NCBI GenBank assembly: GCA_036517135.1 | Contig: DATDXX010000041.1 | Coordinates: forward strand, 1-38,295 | Length of the DNA: 38,295 bases | Direction of reading: 5' to 3' | Origin: Minisyncoccota bacterium | GTDB taxonomy: Bacteria; Patescibacteriota; Minisyncoccia; Phycocordibacterales; CAIRYW01 | In this document: piece after piece, positions 132 through 19,712 of the stretch | Position numbering within the stretch: the first letter of the stretch is position 1 | How the letters are laid out: each line of letters begins with the position of its first letter | The notes under the pieces: generated by a model | Database searches by the model: none | Seen by the model: the letters and a program-made list of their open reading frames with translations, nothing else | Told to the model about the DNA's origin: nothing | Made by a program: the position numbers and the translations under genes

Positions 132-205
132 TGGTGGACCCACCGGGGACCGAACCCGGGCTTCGTCCATGCCATGGACGCGTAATACCACTTTACTATG
201 GGCCC
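132..205 (-). tRNA. tRNA-Ala (anticodon GGC), 3' CCA encoded
   Basis: The reverse complement GGGCCCA-TA-GTAA-AGTGGTA-TTAC-G-CGTCC-ATGGCAT-GGACG-AAGC-CCGGG-TTCGGTC-CCCGG-TGGGTCC-ACCA folds as a cloverleaf. It has the G3:U70 Ala identity pair and anticodon GGC. Confidence 0.9.
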
Positions 206-344: not shown

Positions 345-417
345 GGGCCCTTAGCTTAGCTGGTAGAGCGCCTCATTTGCAATGAGGAGGTCACCGGTTC
401 GAATCCGGTAGGGTCCA
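345..417 (+). tRNA. tRNA-Ala (anticodon UGC), CCA not encoded
   Basis: GGGCCCT-TA-GCTT-AGCTGGTA-GAGC-G-CCTCA-TTTGCAA-TGAGG-AGGTC-ACCGG-TTCGAAT-CCGGT-AGGGTCC-A folds as a cloverleaf. It has the G3:U70 pair and is followed by AAA rather than CCA. Confidence 0.92.
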
Positions 418-3009: not shown

Positions 3010-3777
3010 TTATTGACAATACATAACTAGTTCTTCGTGAACCACACTATTTGAAACGATAACGCCTTTGAACGGTTTTGAATAATCAAGATTCTTACCT
3101 TCAAGTGAAGTAATTTTTCCACCTGCGCCTTTTAAAATAACATCTGCTGCTGCCATATCATGTGCGCCAATACCGCCCTCTACATAGCCGACAAACTTAC
3201 CTTTAGCCACCAATAGAGCTTTGTAAACAGCTCCGCTAAAACTTGCCAAAGCTATTTTGTCATCAATGAATTTTTGCAGATATTTTGTTTTAAAAAACGA
3301 CTTAACGCTGCTTGTTACCGCAATAATACCAGTTTTTAGATCTTTATTTGAAACCGAAATGACCTTATTGTTACAAAAACTTTTCTCTCCGATTATACCG
3401 GTATACATACGATCTAAAAATGGATCATAAGCTACTCCAACTACAGGTTTACCATCTACTGCAAGCGCTAGCGAAAACATGCAAGTAGGCGTGCCCCAAA
3501 TGTAGGCTCTAGTTCCATCAATTGGATCACAAAGCCATTTTCGGCCCATTCCATATTCAGTGTTACTTTCTTCCTCGCCTATCACACCATCATCAGGAAA
3601 TTCCACTGTTAGTCTCTTTATTACCAGAGAATTGATAAGCTTGTCAGCAATAGTTACCATAGAATTGTCTTCCTTTTTTTCTATTTCTTGTTCGCCATCA
3701 AAATACTTAAGCATTATTTGTCCTGCTTCTTTCGCAATGCTTACCGCAGTGTCCAACTCCTTTTTGAAATTACCCAT
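3010..3777 (-). CDS. inositol monophosphatase family protein (SuhB/CysQ-like)
   Basis: 255 aa with IMPase motifs VIGEEE and WLCDPIDGTRAY, plus a C-terminal GxxxHDMAA-type segment. Confidence 0.85.
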   Translation of the reverse strand: MGNFKKELDTAVSIAKEAGQIMLKYFDGEQEIEKKEDNSMVTIADKLINSLVIKRLTVEFPDDGVIGEEESNTEYGMGRKWLCDPIDGTRAYIWGTPTCMFSLALAVDGKPVVGVAYDPFLDRMYTGIIGEKSFCNNKVISVSNKDLKTGIIAVTSSVKSFFKTKYLQKFIDDKIALASFSGAVYKALLVAKGKFVGYVEGGIGAHDMAAADVILKGAGGKITSLEGKNLDYSKPFKGVIVSNSVVHEELVMYCQ

Positions 3778-4745: not shown

Positions 4746-4836
4746 AACGCCGGCACCAGTATTGAGCGAGACCTCAAATTAGCTCGAAGGCCCTCCGCGC
4801 AATACCGCTACTTTTGTCTTGGATTTCATTCCGATA

Positions 4837-6111
4837 TTATATCAGAAAGTTTTTGCGGCGTAATTTTTTGTGGTATGTGGTAGCGAAACGGTGCGCCTCG
4901 GCATTTGAAAGCAGGATTTCCTTTTTGTATTTGAGGCCTAACTCTTTATTCCCCAGCGCTCCTTTTGCTTTGTGCTTTTCGTCTTTGACCACAGAGACCA
5001 CGGGAATGGTTATGCCTGCTTTCTTCAGCGCTGCACTAGCCGCATTTAATTGCGCCACTACTCCGTCTACAACAATGAGATCCGGCATCTGCCATTCAGG
5101 GTGATTGAGGCGACGCTCCAAGACCTCACGCAAAGCACCTGGGTCATTAGAAGCTTTGTATCCGCGGATTTTGAATTTACGATACGAGTTTTTGTCCGGT
5201 GCTCCATCTACAAGAGCCACCATCACCCCCACCATGTTGCTTCCTCCCATATGCGCGATATCGAAACTTTCTATCCGAAAGTTTCGAGCTTCTAGCTTAG
5301 AGCTGTTGGCTGTTAGAAAAGAATCGGATTTGATAAGAGAGATGTCTTGGATGTGGGTCAAGGCATGGATCTTGTCGCGAAGTATTTTGGCCGCTTCAAA
5401 ATTATGCTCTTTTGCCAGAGCTTTCATGTCCTTCTTCAAATCCTTCGTAAGCGCTTTGATATTTCCTGAAAGAAAAAGCTTGATGCGACGGATTCTTATT
5501 GAGTAGCAATATTTATCCATAGCGCCAATGCAAACGCCGGGGCAGAGGCCGATGGAATAGTTGAAGCACGCTCTTTTAGAATTTAATTTGCACTTCTCGT
5601 CACGATAAGGGAAAATTTTCCGGATAATTTTGAGCGCCTCTTTTAGCTGAGCACCATTCGGAAATGGGCCATACACCTCCGCTAGGCCTTGTCTAGCGGA
5701 GATTAAATCCTTTTTGCGAATGGTCAAAACCTGCGGGAAATCTTCTTTTGTAATAACGACGCAGAGGAAGCTTTTATCGTCCTTTTCTCTGGTATTGTAA
5801 ATTGGCTTAAATTTCTTTATCAAATCCGCTTCCAAGAGCAGGGCTTCAAGGACGGAATCCGTCTTTTTGAAATCAAGTGCGCGGGCCTCCTTTAGCATCT
5901 TTACCAATAGCGGCCCGCGCGTCTCTATCAAATCTTTACCAAAATAACTTTTGACGCGATCCTTGAGGGATGTCGCCTTGCCTATATAAATCGGCTTTTT
6001 CTGCTTATTCAGAAAGAAATACACTCCAGGTGTATCTGGCAAGTTGTGCACTTTTTTGTATTGCATATCGTCTAGAATAGGTGTAATCTCAATTTCGGTC
6101 AAACCCTTCAT
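4837..6111 (-). CDS. uvrC: excinuclease ABC subunit C, short form lacking the C-terminal (HhH)2 domain
   Basis: The protein has an N-terminal GIY-YIG domain (GVYFF...YIGKA), a Cys cluster CFNYSIGLCPGVC, a UVR motif (EHNFEAAKILRDKIHAL) and the RNase H-like endonuclease block FRIESFDIAHMGG...AHRFA. It ends about 30 aa after AHRFA, at 424 aa, versus about 600 aa in model bacteria. Confidence 0.88.
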   Translation of the reverse strand: MKGLTEIEITPILDDMQYKKVHNLPDTPGVYFFLNKQKKPIYIGKATSLKDRVKSYFGKDLIETRGPLLVKMLKEARALDFKKTDSVLEALLLEADLIKKFKPIYNTREKDDKSFLCVVITKEDFPQVLTIRKKDLISARQGLAEVYGPFPNGAQLKEALKIIRKIFPYRDEKCKLNSKRACFNYSIGLCPGVCIGAMDKYCYSIRIRRIKLFLSGNIKALTKDLKKDMKALAKEHNFEAAKILRDKIHALTHIQDISLIKSDSFLTANSSKLEARNFRIESFDIAHMGGSNMVGVMVALVDGAPDKNSYRKFKIRGYKASNDPGALREVLERRLNHPEWQMPDLIVVDGVVAQLNAASAALKKAGITIPVVSVVKDEKHKAKGALGNKELGLKYKKEILLSNAEAHRFATTYHKKLRRKNFLI

Positions 6112-9425: not shown

Positions 9426-9914
9426 ATGTCAATCGTTGGAGATATTTTTGATGAGTTGTGGAATAAAAGGTTCTACTATAAAGGTATACCTGTGAATTTT
9501 TTTGGAATCCCACGATTCAGAAGATATAATCATAATTCCTTAAAAACTACATTGAGCCAGCTAAAGCGGCACAGATTTATTGAAAAAGATGAGCGTGGCT
9601 GGTCCTTGACTCGTAGGGGCAGAGATCGTATGAAGACCGCGTATGTCTTTTTTAAAAAATTTGTATCGCCCTTTGAGAAAAATAGTCCACGAAATTTGCT
9701 GTTTATGTTTGATGTCCCCCATGAGAAAAGGCAGCATAGAGATTGGCTTCGTCGTCAGCTACGAGAATATGATTATATCATGGTCCAAAAGAGCGTTTGG
9801 GTAGGACCGTCGCCCCTGCCAGAGGAGTTTCGAGATTACATAAAAACAATCAAGATAAAGGGCTGCATAAAAACTTTTCGACTTGCTAAAGGTTATAACG
9901 GAGATAGGAGTTAA
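9426..9914 (+). CDS. winged-helix plus Cas2-like/PaaX-like fold protein (putative regulator)
   Basis: 162 aa. The segment SLKTTLSQLKRHRFIEKDERGWSLTRRG looks like a wHTH recognition helix plus wing. LLFMFDVPHEKRQHRDWLRRQLREYDYIMVQKSVWVG resembles the beta-alpha-beta core of Cas2/PaaX-type domains. The family assignment is an inference. Confidence 0.6.
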   Translation: MSIVGDIFDELWNKRFYYKGIPVNFFGIPRFRRYNHNSLKTTLSQLKRHRFIEKDERGWSLTRRGRDRMKTAYVFFKKFVSPFEKNSPRNLLFMFDVPHEKRQHRDWLRRQLREYDYIMVQKSVWVGPSPLPEEFRDYIKTIKIKGCIKTFRLAKGYNGDRS

Positions 9915-15207: not shown

Positions 15208-15236
15208 AAAAGTCCGTCACTTCATAGTGGCGGACT
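15204..15236 (-). terminator. rho-independent terminator of trpE
   Basis: The minus-strand RNA reads agtccgccac-tatgaa-gtgacggact followed by T7. The stem overlaps the TAG stop of trpE. Confidence 0.8.
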
Positions 15237-16731
15237 ATACTTCCATCAACTGGGTCCTAGCTATTGCCAAGATCATTGCGCGTGCTTTTTTGATACATTC
15301 TTCGTATTCGTTTTCTGGCACAGAATCAGCGACGATTCCGGCTCCTGCCTGCACATACGCAGTCCCGTTCTTAAGAACAACAGTGCGAAGCGCAATGCAA
15401 GAATCCATATTACCGTCGAATCCGAAATAGCCGACAGCACCAGAGTAAGCACCTCGCTTGTTGCCCTCAAAATCTCGGATAATCTGCATTGCCCGAATTT
15501 TTGGAGCGCCGGATACAGTGCCTGCCGGAAATGACAGACGCATGACATCGTAGGCATCGAACTCCGGTCGGAGCTTTGCCACTACATTTGAGACGATGTG
15601 CATAACCCGGCTGAAACGCTCAATCTCAAACATTTGGGTAACTTTGACAGAACCGAATTCAGCTATCCTGCCAATGTCATTGCGAGCCAAGTCAACAAGC
15701 ATGACGTGTTCAGCGCGTTCTTTCGGATCGGCTAGAAGTTCCCGCTCGAGATTCAGATCTTCTTCCGGGGTTCTTCCTCTCCCTCGCGTTCCCGCGATGG
15801 GACGAATGTTTACCCGTCCATTGATAGCTTTCACGTTTACTTCCGGAGAGCTACCGACAAGCGACAACTCATTCCCAAATTCAATACAAAACATGTAGGG
15901 AGATGGATTCTCCATCCACAAGGAACGGTAAAGTTCCAACGGGTCTCTTGTATACGGAGTTGAGAGCCTTTGAGAGAGAACTACCTGGAAAATGTCACCG
16001 GCATTTATGAACTCTTTTACACGAGCGACCATTTCACAGAAGCGCTCTTTGGTTGTGTTGCTATTGATCTGAATTTCCGGAGCATTGGAAGCCAAATCGA
16101 TCATCGGCAAGTAAGTCGGTGCGCCTAGGAAAAAGCGTGTCTGATCGATCTTTTCGTAAGCATTAGCATATGCCTCTTCTGCATTTCCGTTCCTGATACA
16201 GGAATTGTAAATGATATGAAGGCGTCTGGTCAGATGATCAAACACAATCACCTCCTTTGCGATCATGTAGATCATCTCGGGAATATTGAGTTCGTCTTTT
16301 TCCGCGGCCTCAAGCATTGTTGGCTCGAAAAACCTCACCACATCGTAGCCCATGTAGCCGACTGCTCCGCCAGAAAATTCCGGTAGTCCCGGAACTGACA
16401 CATAATTGAATTGTGCCATAAATGCCTTAAGCTCGTCGAGCGGCGTTCTTTCTGTTTGAAACGTTCGGGTGCGGCCGTTTTCTGTGATAGTTATCGTTCG
16501 ACCATTGCTGCGGAAAATCGCATACGGCGATCTTCCGACAAAGGAGTATCGTCCGATCTGCCCAGTCCTTTCGGCTGATTCAAGAAGAAATGAATATCCT
16601 CCCTTTAGGCGCAGATTGCTGTATGCTGTAATAGGGGTCACGGCATCCATGCTGACGATGGTAGAGACTGATATCAGATTGCCTTGTTTTGCTAGTTCGA
16701 AGAATTGCTCACGTGTCGGGATAGTGTTCAT
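15235..16731 (-). CDS. trpE: anthranilate synthase component I (chorismate-utilising MST family)
   Basis: 498 aa. It has the N-terminal Trp-feedback-type motif SFLLESAE...GRYSF and C-terminal chorismate-binding blocks (GTRGRG, FPAGTVSGAPK, RGAYSGAVGY, IALRT). PabB or another MST enzyme cannot be excluded by eye. Confidence 0.8.
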   Translation of the reverse strand: MNTIPTREQFFELAKQGNLISVSTIVSMDAVTPITAYSNLRLKGGYSFLLESAERTGQIGRYSFVGRSPYAIFRSNGRTITITENGRTRTFQTERTPLDELKAFMAQFNYVSVPGLPEFSGGAVGYMGYDVVRFFEPTMLEAAEKDELNIPEMIYMIAKEVIVFDHLTRRLHIIYNSCIRNGNAEEAYANAYEKIDQTRFFLGAPTYLPMIDLASNAPEIQINSNTTKERFCEMVARVKEFINAGDIFQVVLSQRLSTPYTRDPLELYRSLWMENPSPYMFCIEFGNELSLVGSSPEVNVKAINGRVNIRPIAGTRGRGRTPEEDLNLERELLADPKERAEHVMLVDLARNDIGRIAEFGSVKVTQMFEIERFSRVMHIVSNVVAKLRPEFDAYDVMRLSFPAGTVSGAPKIRAMQIIRDFEGNKRGAYSGAVGYFGFDGNMDSCIALRTVVLKNGTAYVQAGAGIVADSVPENEYEECIKKARAMILAIARTQLMEV

Positions 16732-16774
16732 GTTGTATAGGCTGGTTTGTTGATGTTAAAGATCATTGCGGTTT

Positions 16775-17049
16775 AAAAAAGAAAAAAACTTCTCGTCTCT
16801 TCTTGCGATAAATCACAAAAAGGGACGAAAAGTTTCGTGGTGCCACCCTAATTCAGCAAAACCCAAGTTTTGCCCTTACCAGCTTTATGCACTTTCGTGC
16901 CAACACTAGCTTACTCTGTTACGGGAACTCCCGGATTTCCACGCTGAATTGCTTCATTACAGAAATCATCCTGCCTATTTGCATAGGCGATTCAAGGCCC
17001 AATCCCACAGAGCTTGCGCTCGCGAGACCTTGAGGATATTTGTTTACCT
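16775..17049 (-). promoter_or_regulatory. T-box riboswitch leader (terminator/antiterminator type), probably tRNA-Trp responsive
   Basis: The minus-strand RNA has AAUUAGGGUGGCACCACG (plus 16836-16853). It forms an antiterminator: AGGG/CCCU helix, 7-nt bulge UGGCACC, CGAA-ACUU-UUCG helix. The competing terminator pairs ACUUUUCGUCCC with GAGACGAGAAGU (plus 16788-16799) and is followed by UUUUUUUCUUUUUU. Upstream hairpins carry GNRA loops. Confidence 0.85.
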
Positions 17050-17055
17050 TCTATT

Positions 17056-17083
17056 ATTATACACCCAATTCAAACTAACTCAA
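17056..17083 (-). promoter_or_regulatory. promoter of the T-box/trpE transcript: TTGAGT-N16-TATAAT
   Basis: The -35 box is at plus 17078-17083 (actcaa) and the -10 box at plus 17056-17061 (attata). It sits back-to-back with the -35 box of the divergent TrpR-like gene. Confidence 0.55.
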
Positions 17084-17084
17084 C

Positions 17085-17118
17085 TTGACTTATCCACAGC
17101 ATACTAGTATACTAGAAC
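17085..17118 (+). promoter_or_regulatory. promoter TTGACT-N17-TATACT overlapped by a TrpR-operator-like palindrome ATACTAGTATACTAGAAC
   Basis: TTGACT at 17085-17090 and TATACT at 17108-17113. A perfect 12-bp palindrome CTAGTATACTAG lies at 17104-17115. It has the CTAG-N4-CTAG spacing of the E. coli trp operator GTACTAGTTAACTAGTAC. Confidence 0.6.
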
Positions 17119-17125
17119 GGTGAGA

Positions 17126-17422
17126 ATGAGAAATAATAGATTCGAAAAACTTATCGAAAAATGGGAAAACAGGAAAATATCTGATGCTGATTTTTTGGCA
17201 GAATTTATTTTAAAATTTGAAAGTAAAAAAGAGATGCTTGATATGCTCTATAGCCTCTTCACTCGAACAGAAAGAAGAATGTTGGCGACAAGGCTCTTAA
17301 TAGTAAAAAAATTAAAAGAGGGTCGCTCGCAGCATGAAGTTTCAAGCTCTCTTCATGTGGGTGTTGCAACTGTAAATCGCGGTGCTTTGGAAATAGAAAA
17401 AGAAAGATTTAAATTTATCTAG
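17126..17422 (+). CDS. Trp repressor family (TrpR / YerC-YecD-like) DNA-binding protein
   Basis: LFTRTERRMLATRLLIVKKLKEGRSQHEVSSSLHVGVATVNRG aligns position-for-position with E. coli TrpR [43 protein letters not shown]. A GTG at 17120 is an alternative start. Confidence 0.85.
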   Translation: MRNNRFEKLIEKWENRKISDADFLAEFILKFESKKEMLDMLYSLFTRTERRMLATRLLIVKKLKEGRSQHEVSSSLHVGVATVNRGALEIEKERFKFI

Positions 17423-18167
17423 ATCGCCCTGCCAAAAATTGCATGCACTTTTTGTAGAATCTTTTTTCGAGAATTGCCATACCAAGATGCCCGCCTATCT
17501 TGGCCAGCATGAGTTTTGCGCCAGTTTTACCAATGAACGGCTTTAAGGGTTTCCATAACACAATATCATCGTCCTTTGCGTGAAATATGAGGCATTTGCT
17601 TCCGTCGACCTTTTCTGTTTCAGTTGAGGGATTATAAAGTTTGCCTTGCTTGATCTTCTTCCAACCGTCTTTAGCAATAACATACGCGCGCCCAAATGCC
17701 TTTTTAAGAAATGGGGCTAGCCGTTCAATTGATTCAGTAGTATTTTTCTGGTCCTGCCAATCAATGACAGGTGAAAAGCAAATAACCTTTTTAACTTCTT
17801 TTAATTTGGAATTGAGAAGCGCCGCCGGCCCGCCAAAGCTGGAGCCGATTAGATATACTTTCGGATTCCCTATCTTGAAGTTTTTGTTACCCCAAAATTC
17901 CTTAAATCCTTTCGGCAATTCGGAAATTATATCTCTGATATCCTTCGTGGGAGAATATTTAAACATAACGCCCTCACTCTCCCAGCTTCCACGGTATCGC
18001 GGGAGAAACACCCAATATCCCCTTTTTGCAAAGAATTCCATCACATCCTGTTTTTTAGGGACAGAAGGCATTCCAGAACAAAGGATCATTACTTTGTTTG
18101 ACTTCTTTGCCGGCACCGAAAATTCGCTTATAATCTCTCCTTTGAATTTTGTTCTGTATATTTCCAT
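17415..18167 (-). CDS. alpha/beta hydrolase (dienelactone hydrolase / S9-like fold)
   Basis: 250 aa with the nucleophile elbow GSSFGG, an acid near HAKDDDIV and a His in GGHLG. It is the last gene of the zwf operon. Confidence 0.8.
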   Translation of the reverse strand: MEIYRTKFKGEIISEFSVPAKKSNKVMILCSGMPSVPKKQDVMEFFAKRGYWVFLPRYRGSWESEGVMFKYSPTKDIRDIISELPKGFKEFWGNKNFKIGNPKVYLIGSSFGGPAALLNSKLKEVKKVICFSPVIDWQDQKNTTESIERLAPFLKKAFGRAYVIAKDGWKKIKQGKLYNPSTETEKVDGSKCLIFHAKDDDIVLWKPLKPFIGKTGAKLMLAKIGGHLGMAILEKRFYKKCMQFLAGRSR

Positions 18168-18169
18168 AA

Positions 18170-18793
18170 TTACTTCAAAAGAATAGCACGAGCAGGAGCT
18201 CCTTCAAGACCGATGAATTTCAAAGGAAGGCAAATAAGTTTGTAGATGCCGACTGGTACATCTTTTAGGTTAATACCTTCAATTATCGGAATATTTTTTG
18301 ACAGTAGCGATGTGTGTGAGCGGTTATCTTTGCTTCCACGCTTTTTGACTGAAATATAGTCAATGCCAAAAAGTGTTATACCGAGTTCGCCGAGATAGTC
18401 AGCTGCATCCCCGTCAAGATAAATATAATCGCCATAAAATTTTTCAAATCCTCTTTCTGAATTTGAAGTTTTCGCTAGAATTCTCTCTCCTTTTTTGATA
18501 TTTTCTCTTTTTATATCATCTAGAGTTATTGCTTCTTTTGAAGAAGTAAAGTTAATTACTCTGCAAGGACCAAAAAAAGTTTCAAGAGGAATGGTGTCAA
18601 CTGTCGCTCCTCCAATGATCGTATGAAGCGGAGCATCAACATGTGTGCCGGAATGGCTTCCCATTATAATTTTTGAGAGGTGGCTTGAACTCTCTGGCAT
18701 CTGTGCATGCGTTTCAAGCGTTACAGAAGCGTTTCCTGGATAAATTATAGTGTGGTTATTAAGTGGTAAAGAAATGTCAATTATTTTTTGCAT
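18170..18793 (-). CDS. cyclase-family metal-dependent hydrolase (kynurenine formamidase-like)
   Basis: It carries the HSGTHVDAPLH motif (HxGTHxDxPxH) of the putative cyclase / arylformamidase family. The ATG at 18793 lies 4 nt after the gnd stop, whereas the ORF-track start at 18832 is a TTG that overlaps gnd. Confidence 0.8.
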   Translation of the reverse strand: MQKIIDISLPLNNHTIIYPGNASVTLETHAQMPESSSHLSKIIMGSHSGTHVDAPLHTIIGGATVDTIPLETFFGPCRVINFTSSKEAITLDDIKRENIKKGERILAKTSNSERGFEKFYGDYIYLDGDAADYLGELGITLFGIDYISVKKRGSKDNRSHTSLLSKNIPIIEGINLKDVPVGIYKLICLPLKFIGLEGAPARAILLK

Positions 18794-18797
18794 CGCA

Positions 18798-19712
18798 TTA
18801 TTTTTTAGTTTCGTCTGTTGAATGACCGCCAAACTGATTGCGAAGCGCGGTCAAGACTTGTCCAGTATAACTAGGATTATCTTGCGAATCTATCCTGAAT
18901 TGAAGCGATTTTTCAATTATCGGGACAGGAACGCCGAATTTCTTGGCGGTTTCTATGGTCCACTGGCCTTCGCCGCTGTGCGTTACTTTGCCTGAAATAC
19001 CATCTAAGTTTGCGCCGAATTTTTGATAAGCTTCCTTCAGCCATTCAATAAGCCGAGACTCAACAACTGTGCGGTTGTTATAAACTTTAGATACTTCTTT
19101 CAAATCCAAATTAAACGGAGAATTCCTTAATACTGCAAATCCTTCCGCTATCGCCTGCATCATTCCGTACTCAATGCCGTTATGGACCATTTTAACGAAA
19201 TGTCCTGCACCCGCATTACCCATATAATGAGTGGCATTCGGAGCAGATAAATCTTCAAACAGAGTTTTACATTTTTCAAATAATTCCTTTTTACCGCCAA
19301 CCATTATTGAGGCACCATTTCTTGCTCCACTTGGTCCGCCCGAAACTCCCACGTCAAGAAAATTAATTTTTTTATTTTCTAATTCTTTTGCCCGGCGAAC
19401 CGTTTCTTCCCAAAAACAATTACCTCCATCAATTACTGTATCTCCTGCACTAAGATAAGGCACAAGCTCAGAAAGTACTGCATCAACTGCGTTATGAGAA
19501 ACCATGAGCCAGACTGTCCGCGAGATTTCAAGCGAAGCAACCAACTCTTTTATTGAATACGCTCCCTTTGCTCCCTTTTTTTCAATTTCTTTTACAGGTT
19601 CAGGGCTTCTGTTGTACGCAATTACTTCGTATCCCTTTTCTAAAAGCCGTTCCACCATACCACGCCCCATTTTGCCGAGACCGATGTAGCCAAGCTGTAT
19701 ATTTTTTTGCAT
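18798..19712 (-). CDS. gnd: 6-phosphogluconate dehydrogenase, decarboxylating, short (about 300 aa) form
   Basis: GYIGLGKMGRGM Rossmann motif, GVSGG, and the 6PGDH signature GHFVKMVHNGIEYGMMQAIAEG. Confidence 0.9.
   Translation of the reverse strand: MQKNIQLGYIGLGKMGRGMVERLLEKGYEVIAYNRSPEPVKEIEKKGAKGAYSIKELVASLEISRTVWLMVSHNAVDAVLSELVPYLSAGDTVIDGGNCFWEETVRRAKELENKKINFLDVGVSGGPSGARNGASIMVGGKKELFEKCKTLFEDLSAPNATHYMGNAGAGHFVKMVHNGIEYGMMQAIAEGFAVLRNSPFNLDLKEVSKVYNNRTVVESRLIEWLKEAYQKFGANLDGISGKVTHSGEGQWTIETAKKFGVPVPIIEKSLQFRIDSQDNPSYTGQVLTALRNQFGGHSTDETKK

Follow-up and report, generated by a model that had tools for sequence, protein, structure and literature searches.

The locus examined here raises the question of whether a tryptophan repressor and a tRNA-sensing T-box leader, encoded back to back, are combined in the control of tryptophan genes. 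It lies on a 38,295-nt stretch of DNA (contig DATDXX010000041.1, assembly GCA_036517135.1), referred to as the window, from an uncultured Minisyncoccota bacterium (Patescibacteria) from groundwater. The original prediction described a TrpR-family gene with an Escherichia coli-type trp operator over its own -10 box, divergent from a T-box/trpE promoter, and proposed that a sensor of free tryptophan is joined here to a sensor of tRNA-Trp charging. The results presented here indicate that a mechanism composed of a TrpR-type repressor, a CTAG operator and a divergent T-box is, as a whole, likely. At the level of sequence, it is supported by the fold of the protein, the conservation of the operator, the geometry of the promoters, the elements in the 3' half of the T-box and the linkage of the protein family to trp genes. 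The repressor module consists of the following features.

17126..17422, + strand: gene for the TrpR-like repressor, 98 aa (100 aa from the in-frame GTG at 17120)
17085..17113, + strand: predicted promoter of the TrpR-like gene, -35 TTGACT at 17085-17090, 17-nt spacer, -10 TATACT at 17108-17113
17097..17118, no strand: putative operator of three boxes approximately 8 bp apart, CAG at 17097-17099, CTAG at 17104-17107 and CTAG at 17112-17115

The product belongs to the Trp repressor family, as originally proposed. The recommended search with the Pfam hidden Markov model (HMM) PF01371 (Trp_repressor) gave 48.9 bits, above the gathering score of 27. The best NCBIfam model is TIGR01321 (TrpR) with 40.1 bits, compared to 23.9 bits for the yecD_yerC model TIGR02531, which is below the cut-off of 42.2. 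Among PDB sequences, E. coli TrpR chains scored approximately 26 bits, and the YerC-like 3KOR and 3FRW scored 18.8 and 15.8 bits. An AF2 monomer model, built from a 50-sequence alignment, has six helices and a pLDDT of 95.3. Its top Foldseek matches are the E. coli TrpR structures 1TRO, 1TRR and 1ZT9 (probability 1.00, TM of approximately 0.58-0.60), and HisR-like structures rank after them. In established structures of TrpR, R54 and R84 sandwich the indole ring. Both residues, along with T44, V58, T81 and G85, are identical in the window protein. An alignment of 50 clade members revealed that T46, E49, R56, K64, G79, T82, R85, G86 and F95 are invariant; T46, R56, T82, R85 and G86 correspond to E. 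coli T44, R54, T81, R84 and G85, and five of the six pocket residues are kept. HisR/YerC proteins have other residues at all the Trp contacts of helices 3 and 4 (PMC9413887). A grouping with YerC/YecD, which the original prediction had considered, was not seen, given the TrpR and YerC scores and the retention of the Trp-sandwiching residues. The window gene is a member of a Patescibacterial (Microgenomates) TrpR-type clade, whose proteins have 84-105 aa and of which 50 of 50 members match TIGR01321 (best E-value 1e-16); judged by its residues and scores, the protein is not in the HisR/YerC group. Conservation of the pocket is compatible with tryptophan binding, without being proof of it, and tryptophan is the probable ligand.

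Identical copies of the TrpR-like protein were confined to contigs of a single population, recovered from Rifle-type groundwater metagenomes. A word-index protein search returned nothing besides the protein itself, and a single-protein search of GTDB genomes revealed no relative. An exhaustive HMMER search recovered 170 relatives, the closest with approximately 49% identity, and a profile search recovered 676 proteins at E <= 1e-8, the named ones belonging to Roizmanbacteria, Microgenomates and the Patescibacteria group. A locus search of GTDB showed that at least 538 genomes harbor a relative, and 80 loci were taken for analysis with 3 kb on either side; loci of relatives, including those of the window's own sub-lineage, are numbered with the prefix L. 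Operator counts refer to 79 of the 80 family loci, and counts in other places to 447,857 nt of flanking DNA; promoter spacings were counted in 75 loci. The window protein falls in a sub-lineage of approximately 22 members with an N-terminal extension, and a metagenome scan with the sub-lineage alignment gave one distant locus among the matches listed. L037, L039, L041 and approximately 30 other family loci are titled 'uncultured Gammaproteobacteria' or 'Pseudomonadales'. These titles look wrong, because the loci share 60-80% identity, in both the TrpR-like gene and its promoter, with Roizmanbacteria/Levybacteria metagenome-assembled genomes.

The putative operator overlaps the -10 box of the TrpR-like gene and ends at the predicted start site. 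Its core, CTAGTATACTAG (17104-17115), is a perfect palindrome with two CTAG tetramers 4 nt apart, exactly as had been claimed. It is the sole CTAG-N4-CTAG in the window; shuffled sequences average 0.22 per window and indicate a chance of approximately 3e-4 for this motif in a 60-nt promoter. The TrpR motif of gammaproteobacteria is TGTAcTnGTnnACnAgTACA (PMC9413887), and window positions 17100-17119 match 12 of its 16 specified positions. The geometry of the family operator, ACTAGT-N2-ACTAGT with the CTAG centres 8 bp apart, is that of TGTAcTnGTnnACnAgTACA (PMC9413887), which bears out the proposed likeness to the E. coli operator.

A chance match is ruled out because the operator is conserved across relatives. 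The motif TACTAGTA is present at -70..+3 of the gene in 71 of the 79 loci and has no other occurrence in the flanking DNA. CTAG-N4-CTAG occurs in this interval in 51 loci, with one match elsewhere, and CTAG-N4-(A/C)TAG in 68 loci, with seven matches elsewhere. The 16-mer TACTAGTATAMTAGTA, with up to two mismatches, has 114 matches at TrpR-like promoters and one in another place, and the window operator differs from it by one mismatch, on both strands. The palindrome is thus conserved in related genomes and specific to these promoters. The family consensus is TACTAGTATA(A/C)TAGTA. Members of the sub-lineage usually have a single CTAG-centred palindrome with weaker boxes on its flanks: GAACAGTATACTAGTATACTGTTC in L116, a perfect 24-bp palindrome; GCGTACTAGTACGC in L131; ACAGTGTACTAGTACACTGT in L117; and CCACAGTATACTAGTA... 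in L009 and L115. The suggestion that CTAG-N4-CTAG is kept as a unit in the nearest relatives was rejected, as the sub-lineage has mostly the single palindrome cAGTATACTAGTATACTG and the tandem form is found in the broader family. A stretch of the site, TTGACTTATCCACAG(C/T)ATACTAGTATAC, is nearly identical in the window and L009, two loci whose proteins share only 49% identity. L132, whose TrpR-like gene is a more distant one, has a perfect 30-bp palindrome, AACAGCATACTAGTATACTAGTATGCTGTT (4817-4846), approximately 170 nt upstream of that gene and on the divergent gene's side. HisR sites follow the motif cacTTTA-N6-TAAAgtg (PMC9413887). TTTA-N6-TAAA has four matches in the window, none of them in 16732-17125, and a HisR-type operator was rejected since the intergenic region lacks this motif.

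The promoter that this operator overlaps was called correctly in the original prediction; TTGACT-N17-TATACT matches the consensus at 10 of 12 positions and places the transcription start at approximately 17120. On the + strand, the layout is ...aactcaac TTGACT tatccacagcatactag TATACT agaacg GTG aga ATG.... The same -35/17/-10 layout is present in 75 of 79 family loci and also in L009, L010, L115, L116, L131 and L134 of the sub-lineage, and nearly all 80 loci have the upstream pattern cTTGACA-(aa)TACTA(gc)a-TACTAGTATA(A/C)TAGTA-N2-6-ATG. In 52 of 75 loci, the ATG lies 35-38 nt from the start of TTGAC, which places it 6-9 nt past the -10 box; in L116, L131 and L117 exactly 6 nt separate the -10 box and the ATG. 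Since this is the expected position of transcription start, the mRNA of the family is probably leaderless or nearly so. No usable Shine-Dalgarno sequence is present at the start of the window gene. Its ATG at 17126 lies 12 nt past the -10 box, as had been noted, and 41 nt from the start of TTGAC; the in-frame GTG at 17120 lies 6 nt past the -10 box and 35 nt from TTGAC, in the commonest range of the family. The window mRNA would therefore be leaderless from the GUG or carry a 6-nt leader, in agreement with the earlier description of the transcript as nearly leaderless.

The promoter spacer also contains TTATCCACA, a perfect match to the DnaA-box consensus (17090-17098), just past the -35 box. 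It is kept in L009, L115 and L129, with a near-copy, TTATCCACT, in L131, and its CACAG portion is part of the operator's left arm. The window contains no DnaA-box cluster, and a replication-origin or DnaA interpretation of TTATCCACA was rejected on this ground.

The family is linked to tryptophan genes. In 56 of 80 loci, trp genes lie on the same strand within 3 kb downstream of the TrpR-like gene. Clustering of the neighbours of the 80 loci identified the genes that follow as those for a TrpB-like pyridoxal phosphate enzyme (NF009057, 684 bits), TrpS (TIGR00233, 296 bits), anthranilate synthase component I (TIGR00564, 487 bits, just under the cut-off) and component II (TIGR00566). The commonest conserved neighbour clusters with a metabolic theme are trpS, trpB-like, trpE and trpG, and no histidine gene clusters are among the commonest. 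A scan with the 16-mer revealed no further operator inside the family loci, and the downstream trp genes are thus probably co-transcribed from the operator-controlled promoter. It was previously reported that a trp repressor gene heads a tRNATrp(A73)-ORF1-TrpRS-A operon in Microgenomates (Mukai et al. 2017, PMC5370408). In L043, the interval that separates the TrpR-like gene from trpE contains a small open reading frame (ORF), MERIDTHTNEGPPGSSSEGQGLVWL (3295-3372), beside a hairpin; the ORF may encode a leader peptide, with a Trp codon in it.

On the opposite strand of the window, the T-box module and trpE have the following features.

17056..17083, - strand: predicted T-box/trpE promoter, -35 TTGAGT at 17083-17078, 16-nt spacer, -10 TATAAT at 17061-17056
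16772..17049, - strand: predicted T-box leader, RF00230 58.3 bits, below the gathering score
17001-16999, - strand: candidate specifier UGG, within GGGAUUGGGCC (17006-16996)
within 16772..17049, - strand: Stem IIA/B, CCGGGAGUUCCCGUAA
16847-16836, - strand: T-box core GGUGGCACCACG, with the bulge UGGCACC
16836-16785, - strand: terminator stem, followed by a U-run at 16784-16772
15235..16731, - strand: trpE, anthranilate synthase component I, TIGR00564 (trpE_most) 544.6 bits against a cut-off of 517.7

The leader was matched by RF00230 with E-values of 3.7e-12 in a local search and 2.5e-10 in the whole window. Its 3' half, as far as the sequence can tell, is canonical. AGGGUGGCACCACGAAACUUUUCGUCCCU would form the antiterminator with a 7-nt bulge, UGGCACC (fold AGGGUGGCACCACG...CCCU), in competition with a terminator of -30 kcal/mol (z -5.9) that is followed by U7CU6. 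Homologous leaders are divergent from the TrpR-like gene in L116 (29 bits), L131 and L134. The leaders of the window and these three loci share CCGGGAGYUCCCGUAA, the T-box core and the untranslated region (UTR) after the terminator. All four contain a short hairpin with GGG(A/G)(U/C)UGGG(C/U)C in the 3' internal loop, of which only UGG and the following G are invariant, and the helix that closes after the specifier loop covaries (CAAGG/CCUUG, CAGG/CCUG, UUAGA/UCUAA). Three of the four leaders have the bulge UGGC, which pairs with the discriminator base of bacterial tRNA-Trp, G73 (PMC5370408). Based on the invariant UGG+G and on the fit of the bulge UGGC to G73, UGG at 17001-16999 is the likely specifier of the window leader. 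The Ser (UCG) and Asn/Met specifiers suggested by the Rfam alignment of Stem I were rejected, as they are not conserved in the homologous leaders. In GTDB, the Stem IIA/B pattern AATCCGGGAGNTCCCGTAA had just 10 matches, in unrelated taxa and presumably by chance, and no T-box core was found in the 80 family loci. L009 (4058-4250) and L129 (4731-4905) are without a full T-box; they keep AAGGUGGUUUUU, which is followed by a hairpin that buries GGAGG (CCUCCCUG...CAGGGAGG). This element may be a T-box remnant or a translational switch.

The T-box/trpE promoter also matches the consensus at 10 of 12 positions, with a predicted start at approximately 17049. As had been claimed, its -35 box is adjacent to that of the TrpR-like gene; a single base separates the two (17078-17083 and 17085-17090, opposite strands). 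Back-to-back -35 boxes (GTCAA-N2-TTGAC) are also seen in sub-lineage loci.

From these features, we infer a mechanism with two sensors. Dimers of the TrpR-like protein would bind the CTAG-box operator (17097-17118), with L-tryptophan as the most likely corepressor, and the bound repressor would shut off the sigma-70-type promoter of its own gene, because the operator overlaps the -10 box and the start site. The TrpR-like mRNA would be leaderless or nearly so. The promoter on the opposite strand would produce the T-box leader, and transcription would terminate unless uncharged tRNA-Trp stabilizes the antiterminator; read-through of the terminator would then express trpE. The two sensors in the window most likely act on separate transcripts.

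The observations that weigh against this mechanism concern the relation between the modules, the T-box and the identity of the effector. In the window trpE promoter, no site with up to four mismatches to the family operator was found, and the single window operator lies approximately 52-69 bp upstream of the predicted T-box start. A second operator over this promoter was considered and rejected because the sequence in question, GTATAATAATAGAAG, is degenerate. Direct repression of trpE is thus not supported in the window, and cross-control of trpE by the repressor seems rather unlikely there, although interference between the tightly opposed promoters is possible. Moreover, the order UvrB ... 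tgt - FKBP - [small ORFs] - TrpR-like - alpha/beta hydrolase is shared by the window, L009, L116, L129 and L131, and in the four relatives there is no trpE; trpE pseudogene remnants were also sought, and none were found. In these relatives, the T-box or leader precedes small ORFs instead. The alternative, which has close to an even chance, is that the modules are independent: the TrpR-like gene would regulate itself and perhaps distant genes, the T-box alone would control trpE, and trpE would have been placed behind a pre-existing leader as a lineage-specific accident. The homology of the post-terminator UTR to that of relatives whose T-box precedes small ORFs is consistent with such an event, as is the window TrpE itself, which is 41% identical to a Microgenomates TrpE versus 50% to a Verrucomicrobial one. 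However, T-box and TrpR-like gene are also found as a divergent pair in L116, L131 and L134, and the TrpR-like family is otherwise tightly linked to trp genes. In addition, with -35 boxes 1 bp apart, occupancy of one side by polymerase or repressor should affect the other. A second CTAG palindrome on the divergent side is present in L009, L116, L129, L132, L134 and L136; its counterpart in the window and L131 is degenerate. This second palindrome overlaps the T-box promoter at its -10 box (TAGTAT) in L116 and L134, where repressor and T-box would therefore act in series on one transcript. A third CTAG palindrome, GCGTGCTAGTACAC, was observed in L134 (283-296) inside the T-box leader DNA, downstream of the leader promoter. 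Of the originally proposed pairing of a free-tryptophan sensor with a sensor of tRNA charging, the divergent arrangement recurs in three relatives, and dual sensing of one gene is not borne out in the window. A broader interpretation is that of a Microgenomates tryptophan regulon, in which a TrpR-type repressor, a CTAG-box operator and a leaderless promoter head trpS, trpB-like or trpE-trpG genes, and in which the sub-lineage has wired the repressor to a T-box with a short Stem I for serial control by two inputs. This interpretation is tentative, at slightly below an even chance.

Regarding the T-box, the score of 58.3 bits is below the RF00230 gathering score of 93, and Rfam at the gathering threshold gave no T-box in the window. 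Stem I is atypical, and the Rfam alignment there is weak with non-standard pairs. The upper Stem I hairpin is only GAGC-GCAA-GCUC, an extra hairpin follows, and there is no recognisable distal platform, which accounts for the low score. The bases before UGG (UUG or CUG) can also be read as Leu codons; the discriminator of tRNA-Leu is A73. Regarding the effector, the TIGR01321 score of 40.1 is below the equivalog cut-off of 67.25, the YerC/YecD model is also matched by 45 of 50 clade members, and two residues of E. coli TrpR are substituted, S88 by Glu and the base-contacting R69 by His, so that ligand and fine specificity could differ from those of E. coli TrpR. A TrpR-fold regulator may therefore respond to histidine, as HisR/YerC does, or to indole, anthranilate or another metabolite. 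Many Patescibacteria are without full tryptophan synthesis, and indole or anthranilate are conceivable ligands because the neighbours are only a TrpB-like enzyme and TrpE-TrpG. The TrpR family also includes the histidine repressor (PMC9413887). A different effector is nonetheless improbable: the equivalents of T44, R54, T81, R84 and G85 are invariant, the operator is of the TrpR and not the HisR type, the metabolic neighbour clusters are Trp genes with no histidine clusters among the commonest, and both HMM and PDB scores are higher for TrpR than for YerC. Far less probable still is that the CTAG repeats are a conserved context of the promoter or leaderless start, or the site of another factor, such as a DnaA box. 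The motif does include the -10 hexamer itself (TATAAT or TATACT), and TTATCCACA is kept in several sub-lineage promoters. Yet the dyad symmetry extends far beyond the -10 box, up to the perfect 24-bp (L116) and 30-bp (L132) palindromes, and there are copies both at the divergent promoter and at places without a -35/-10 pair. Furthermore, 448 kb of flanking DNA, which must hold many other promoters, contain no TACTAGTA, a match to the known TrpR motif stands beside a gene for a TrpR fold, and DnaA boxes are not clustered in the window. A TrpR-type repressor acting through the CTAG operator thus remains the preferred interpretation.

E. coli TrpR represses its own trpR promoter and also acts at operators of trpEDCBA, aroH, mtr and aroL. 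The Patescibacterial protein shares with it the fold, the recognition segment of the helix-turn-helix, (I/V)AT(I/V)TRG, and the pocket residues T44/R54/T81/R84/G85, and the operator shares the ACTAGT/CTAG boxes 8 bp apart and the position over the promoter of the regulator itself. Unlike E. coli TrpR, the window protein is below the TIGR01321 cut-off, with approximately 29% identity to it and with His and Glu in place of R69 and S88. The outer operator bases are A/T (ATACTAG) instead of those of GTACTAG in E. coli, the mRNA is predicted to be leaderless, the phylum is Patescibacteria, and most relatives have the regulator at the head of the trp operon that it would control. The partner RNA control is a T-box, whereas in E. 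coli it is a leader-peptide attenuator. HisR (YerC/YecD) is likewise a small TrpR-fold protein with 20-bp palindromic operators and frequent autoregulation, and evolutionarily it is found together with T-boxes that control the same pathway (Ashniev et al. 2022, PMC9413887). The system described here differs from HisR, which has the TTTA-N6-TAAA motif, replaced Trp contacts and his neighbours, in its TrpR-type operator, kept pocket and trp neighbours.

Among Firmicutes, T-boxes with a UGG specifier control the Lactococcus lactis trp operon and the Bacillus subtilis rtpA-ycbK (anti-TRAP) operon. The window leader resembles Firmicutes T-boxes in the UGGNACC bulge of the antiterminator, the competing intrinsic terminator and Stem II with IIA/B, and, as in those with a UGG specifier, a Trp gene is predicted to be under the control of uncharged tRNA-Trp. 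It differs in scoring below the Rfam gathering threshold, in its short Stem I without a recognisable distal platform, in the extra hairpin and in its occurrence in Patescibacteria; it is also paired with a TrpR-type repressor gene and not with TRAP. To our knowledge, a protein sensor of a free amino acid combined with an RNA sensor of tRNA charging is not known from model systems. The literature on TrpR/Trp repressor or T-boxes in Patescibacteria or the candidate phyla radiation yielded only Mukai et al. 2017 (PMC5370408). In the operon described there, a TrpR-like gene from the same bacterial group also heads a tryptophan-related operon, whereas the window regulator is monocistronic and divergent from T-box-trpE; no operator, leaderless promoter or T-box was described (PMC5370408). 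No paper was found describing an operator or promoter of Microgenomates TrpR-like genes, a TrpR-plus-T-box pairing or a T-box in the Microgenomates group.

Several other features of the window and its relatives were observed. Among the window ORFs, trpE is the sole trp biosynthesis gene, with no trpG, D, C, F, B or A in 38 kb. The window trpE is thus an orphan, coding for anthranilate synthesis apart from the other steps of the pathway; elsewhere in Microgenomates, the regulator is followed by no more than trpE-trpG or trpB-like-trpS. The small proteins encoded behind the leader in the relatives (L009 3797-4057, L129 4527-4730, L116 3957-4467 and L131 4314-4553) have no Pfam match, and several end in Trp-containing tails (..DSDWWGNGWGS.., ..QYWWARGWGS.., ..GKGWS*, ..NKNGW*). 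The alpha/beta hydrolase gene (17415-18167, - strand) is convergent with the TrpR-like gene, with an 8-nt overlap, and is syntenic in all sub-lineage loci. It adjoins a cyclase/arylformamidase-like gene (18170-18832; TIGR03035, 155 bits, below the cut-off of 223), which is possibly a kynurenine formamidase relative. Two tRNA-Ala genes are located at 132-205 (- strand) and 345-417 (+ strand), with anticodons GGC and UGC; the former appeared only in the Rfam E-value run (54.9 bits), and the gathering run listed only the latter. A 162-aa protein with a PaaX central/Cas2-like domain is encoded at 9426-9914, between uvrA and uvrB.

Gene regulation has hardly been explored in Patescibacteria (candidate phyla radiation), whose members cannot be cultured by themselves. 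Here, regulator, binding site, promoter, type of start site and likely regulon can be read across dozens of genomes, and the operator is close enough to that of E. coli for testing the circuit in E. coli. The repressor and operator are already of a known kind; what is new is their pairing with a divergent, non-canonical T-box, apparently arranged serially in two relatives but side by side in the window, which adds a divergent T-box type that is missed by current covariance models. DNA recognition by TrpR appears to be conserved between very distant bacterial phyla. Finally, the results point to controlled tryptophan metabolism, involving trpS, an indole-salvaging trpB-like gene and trpE-trpG, in organisms that are regarded as auxotrophic symbionts.

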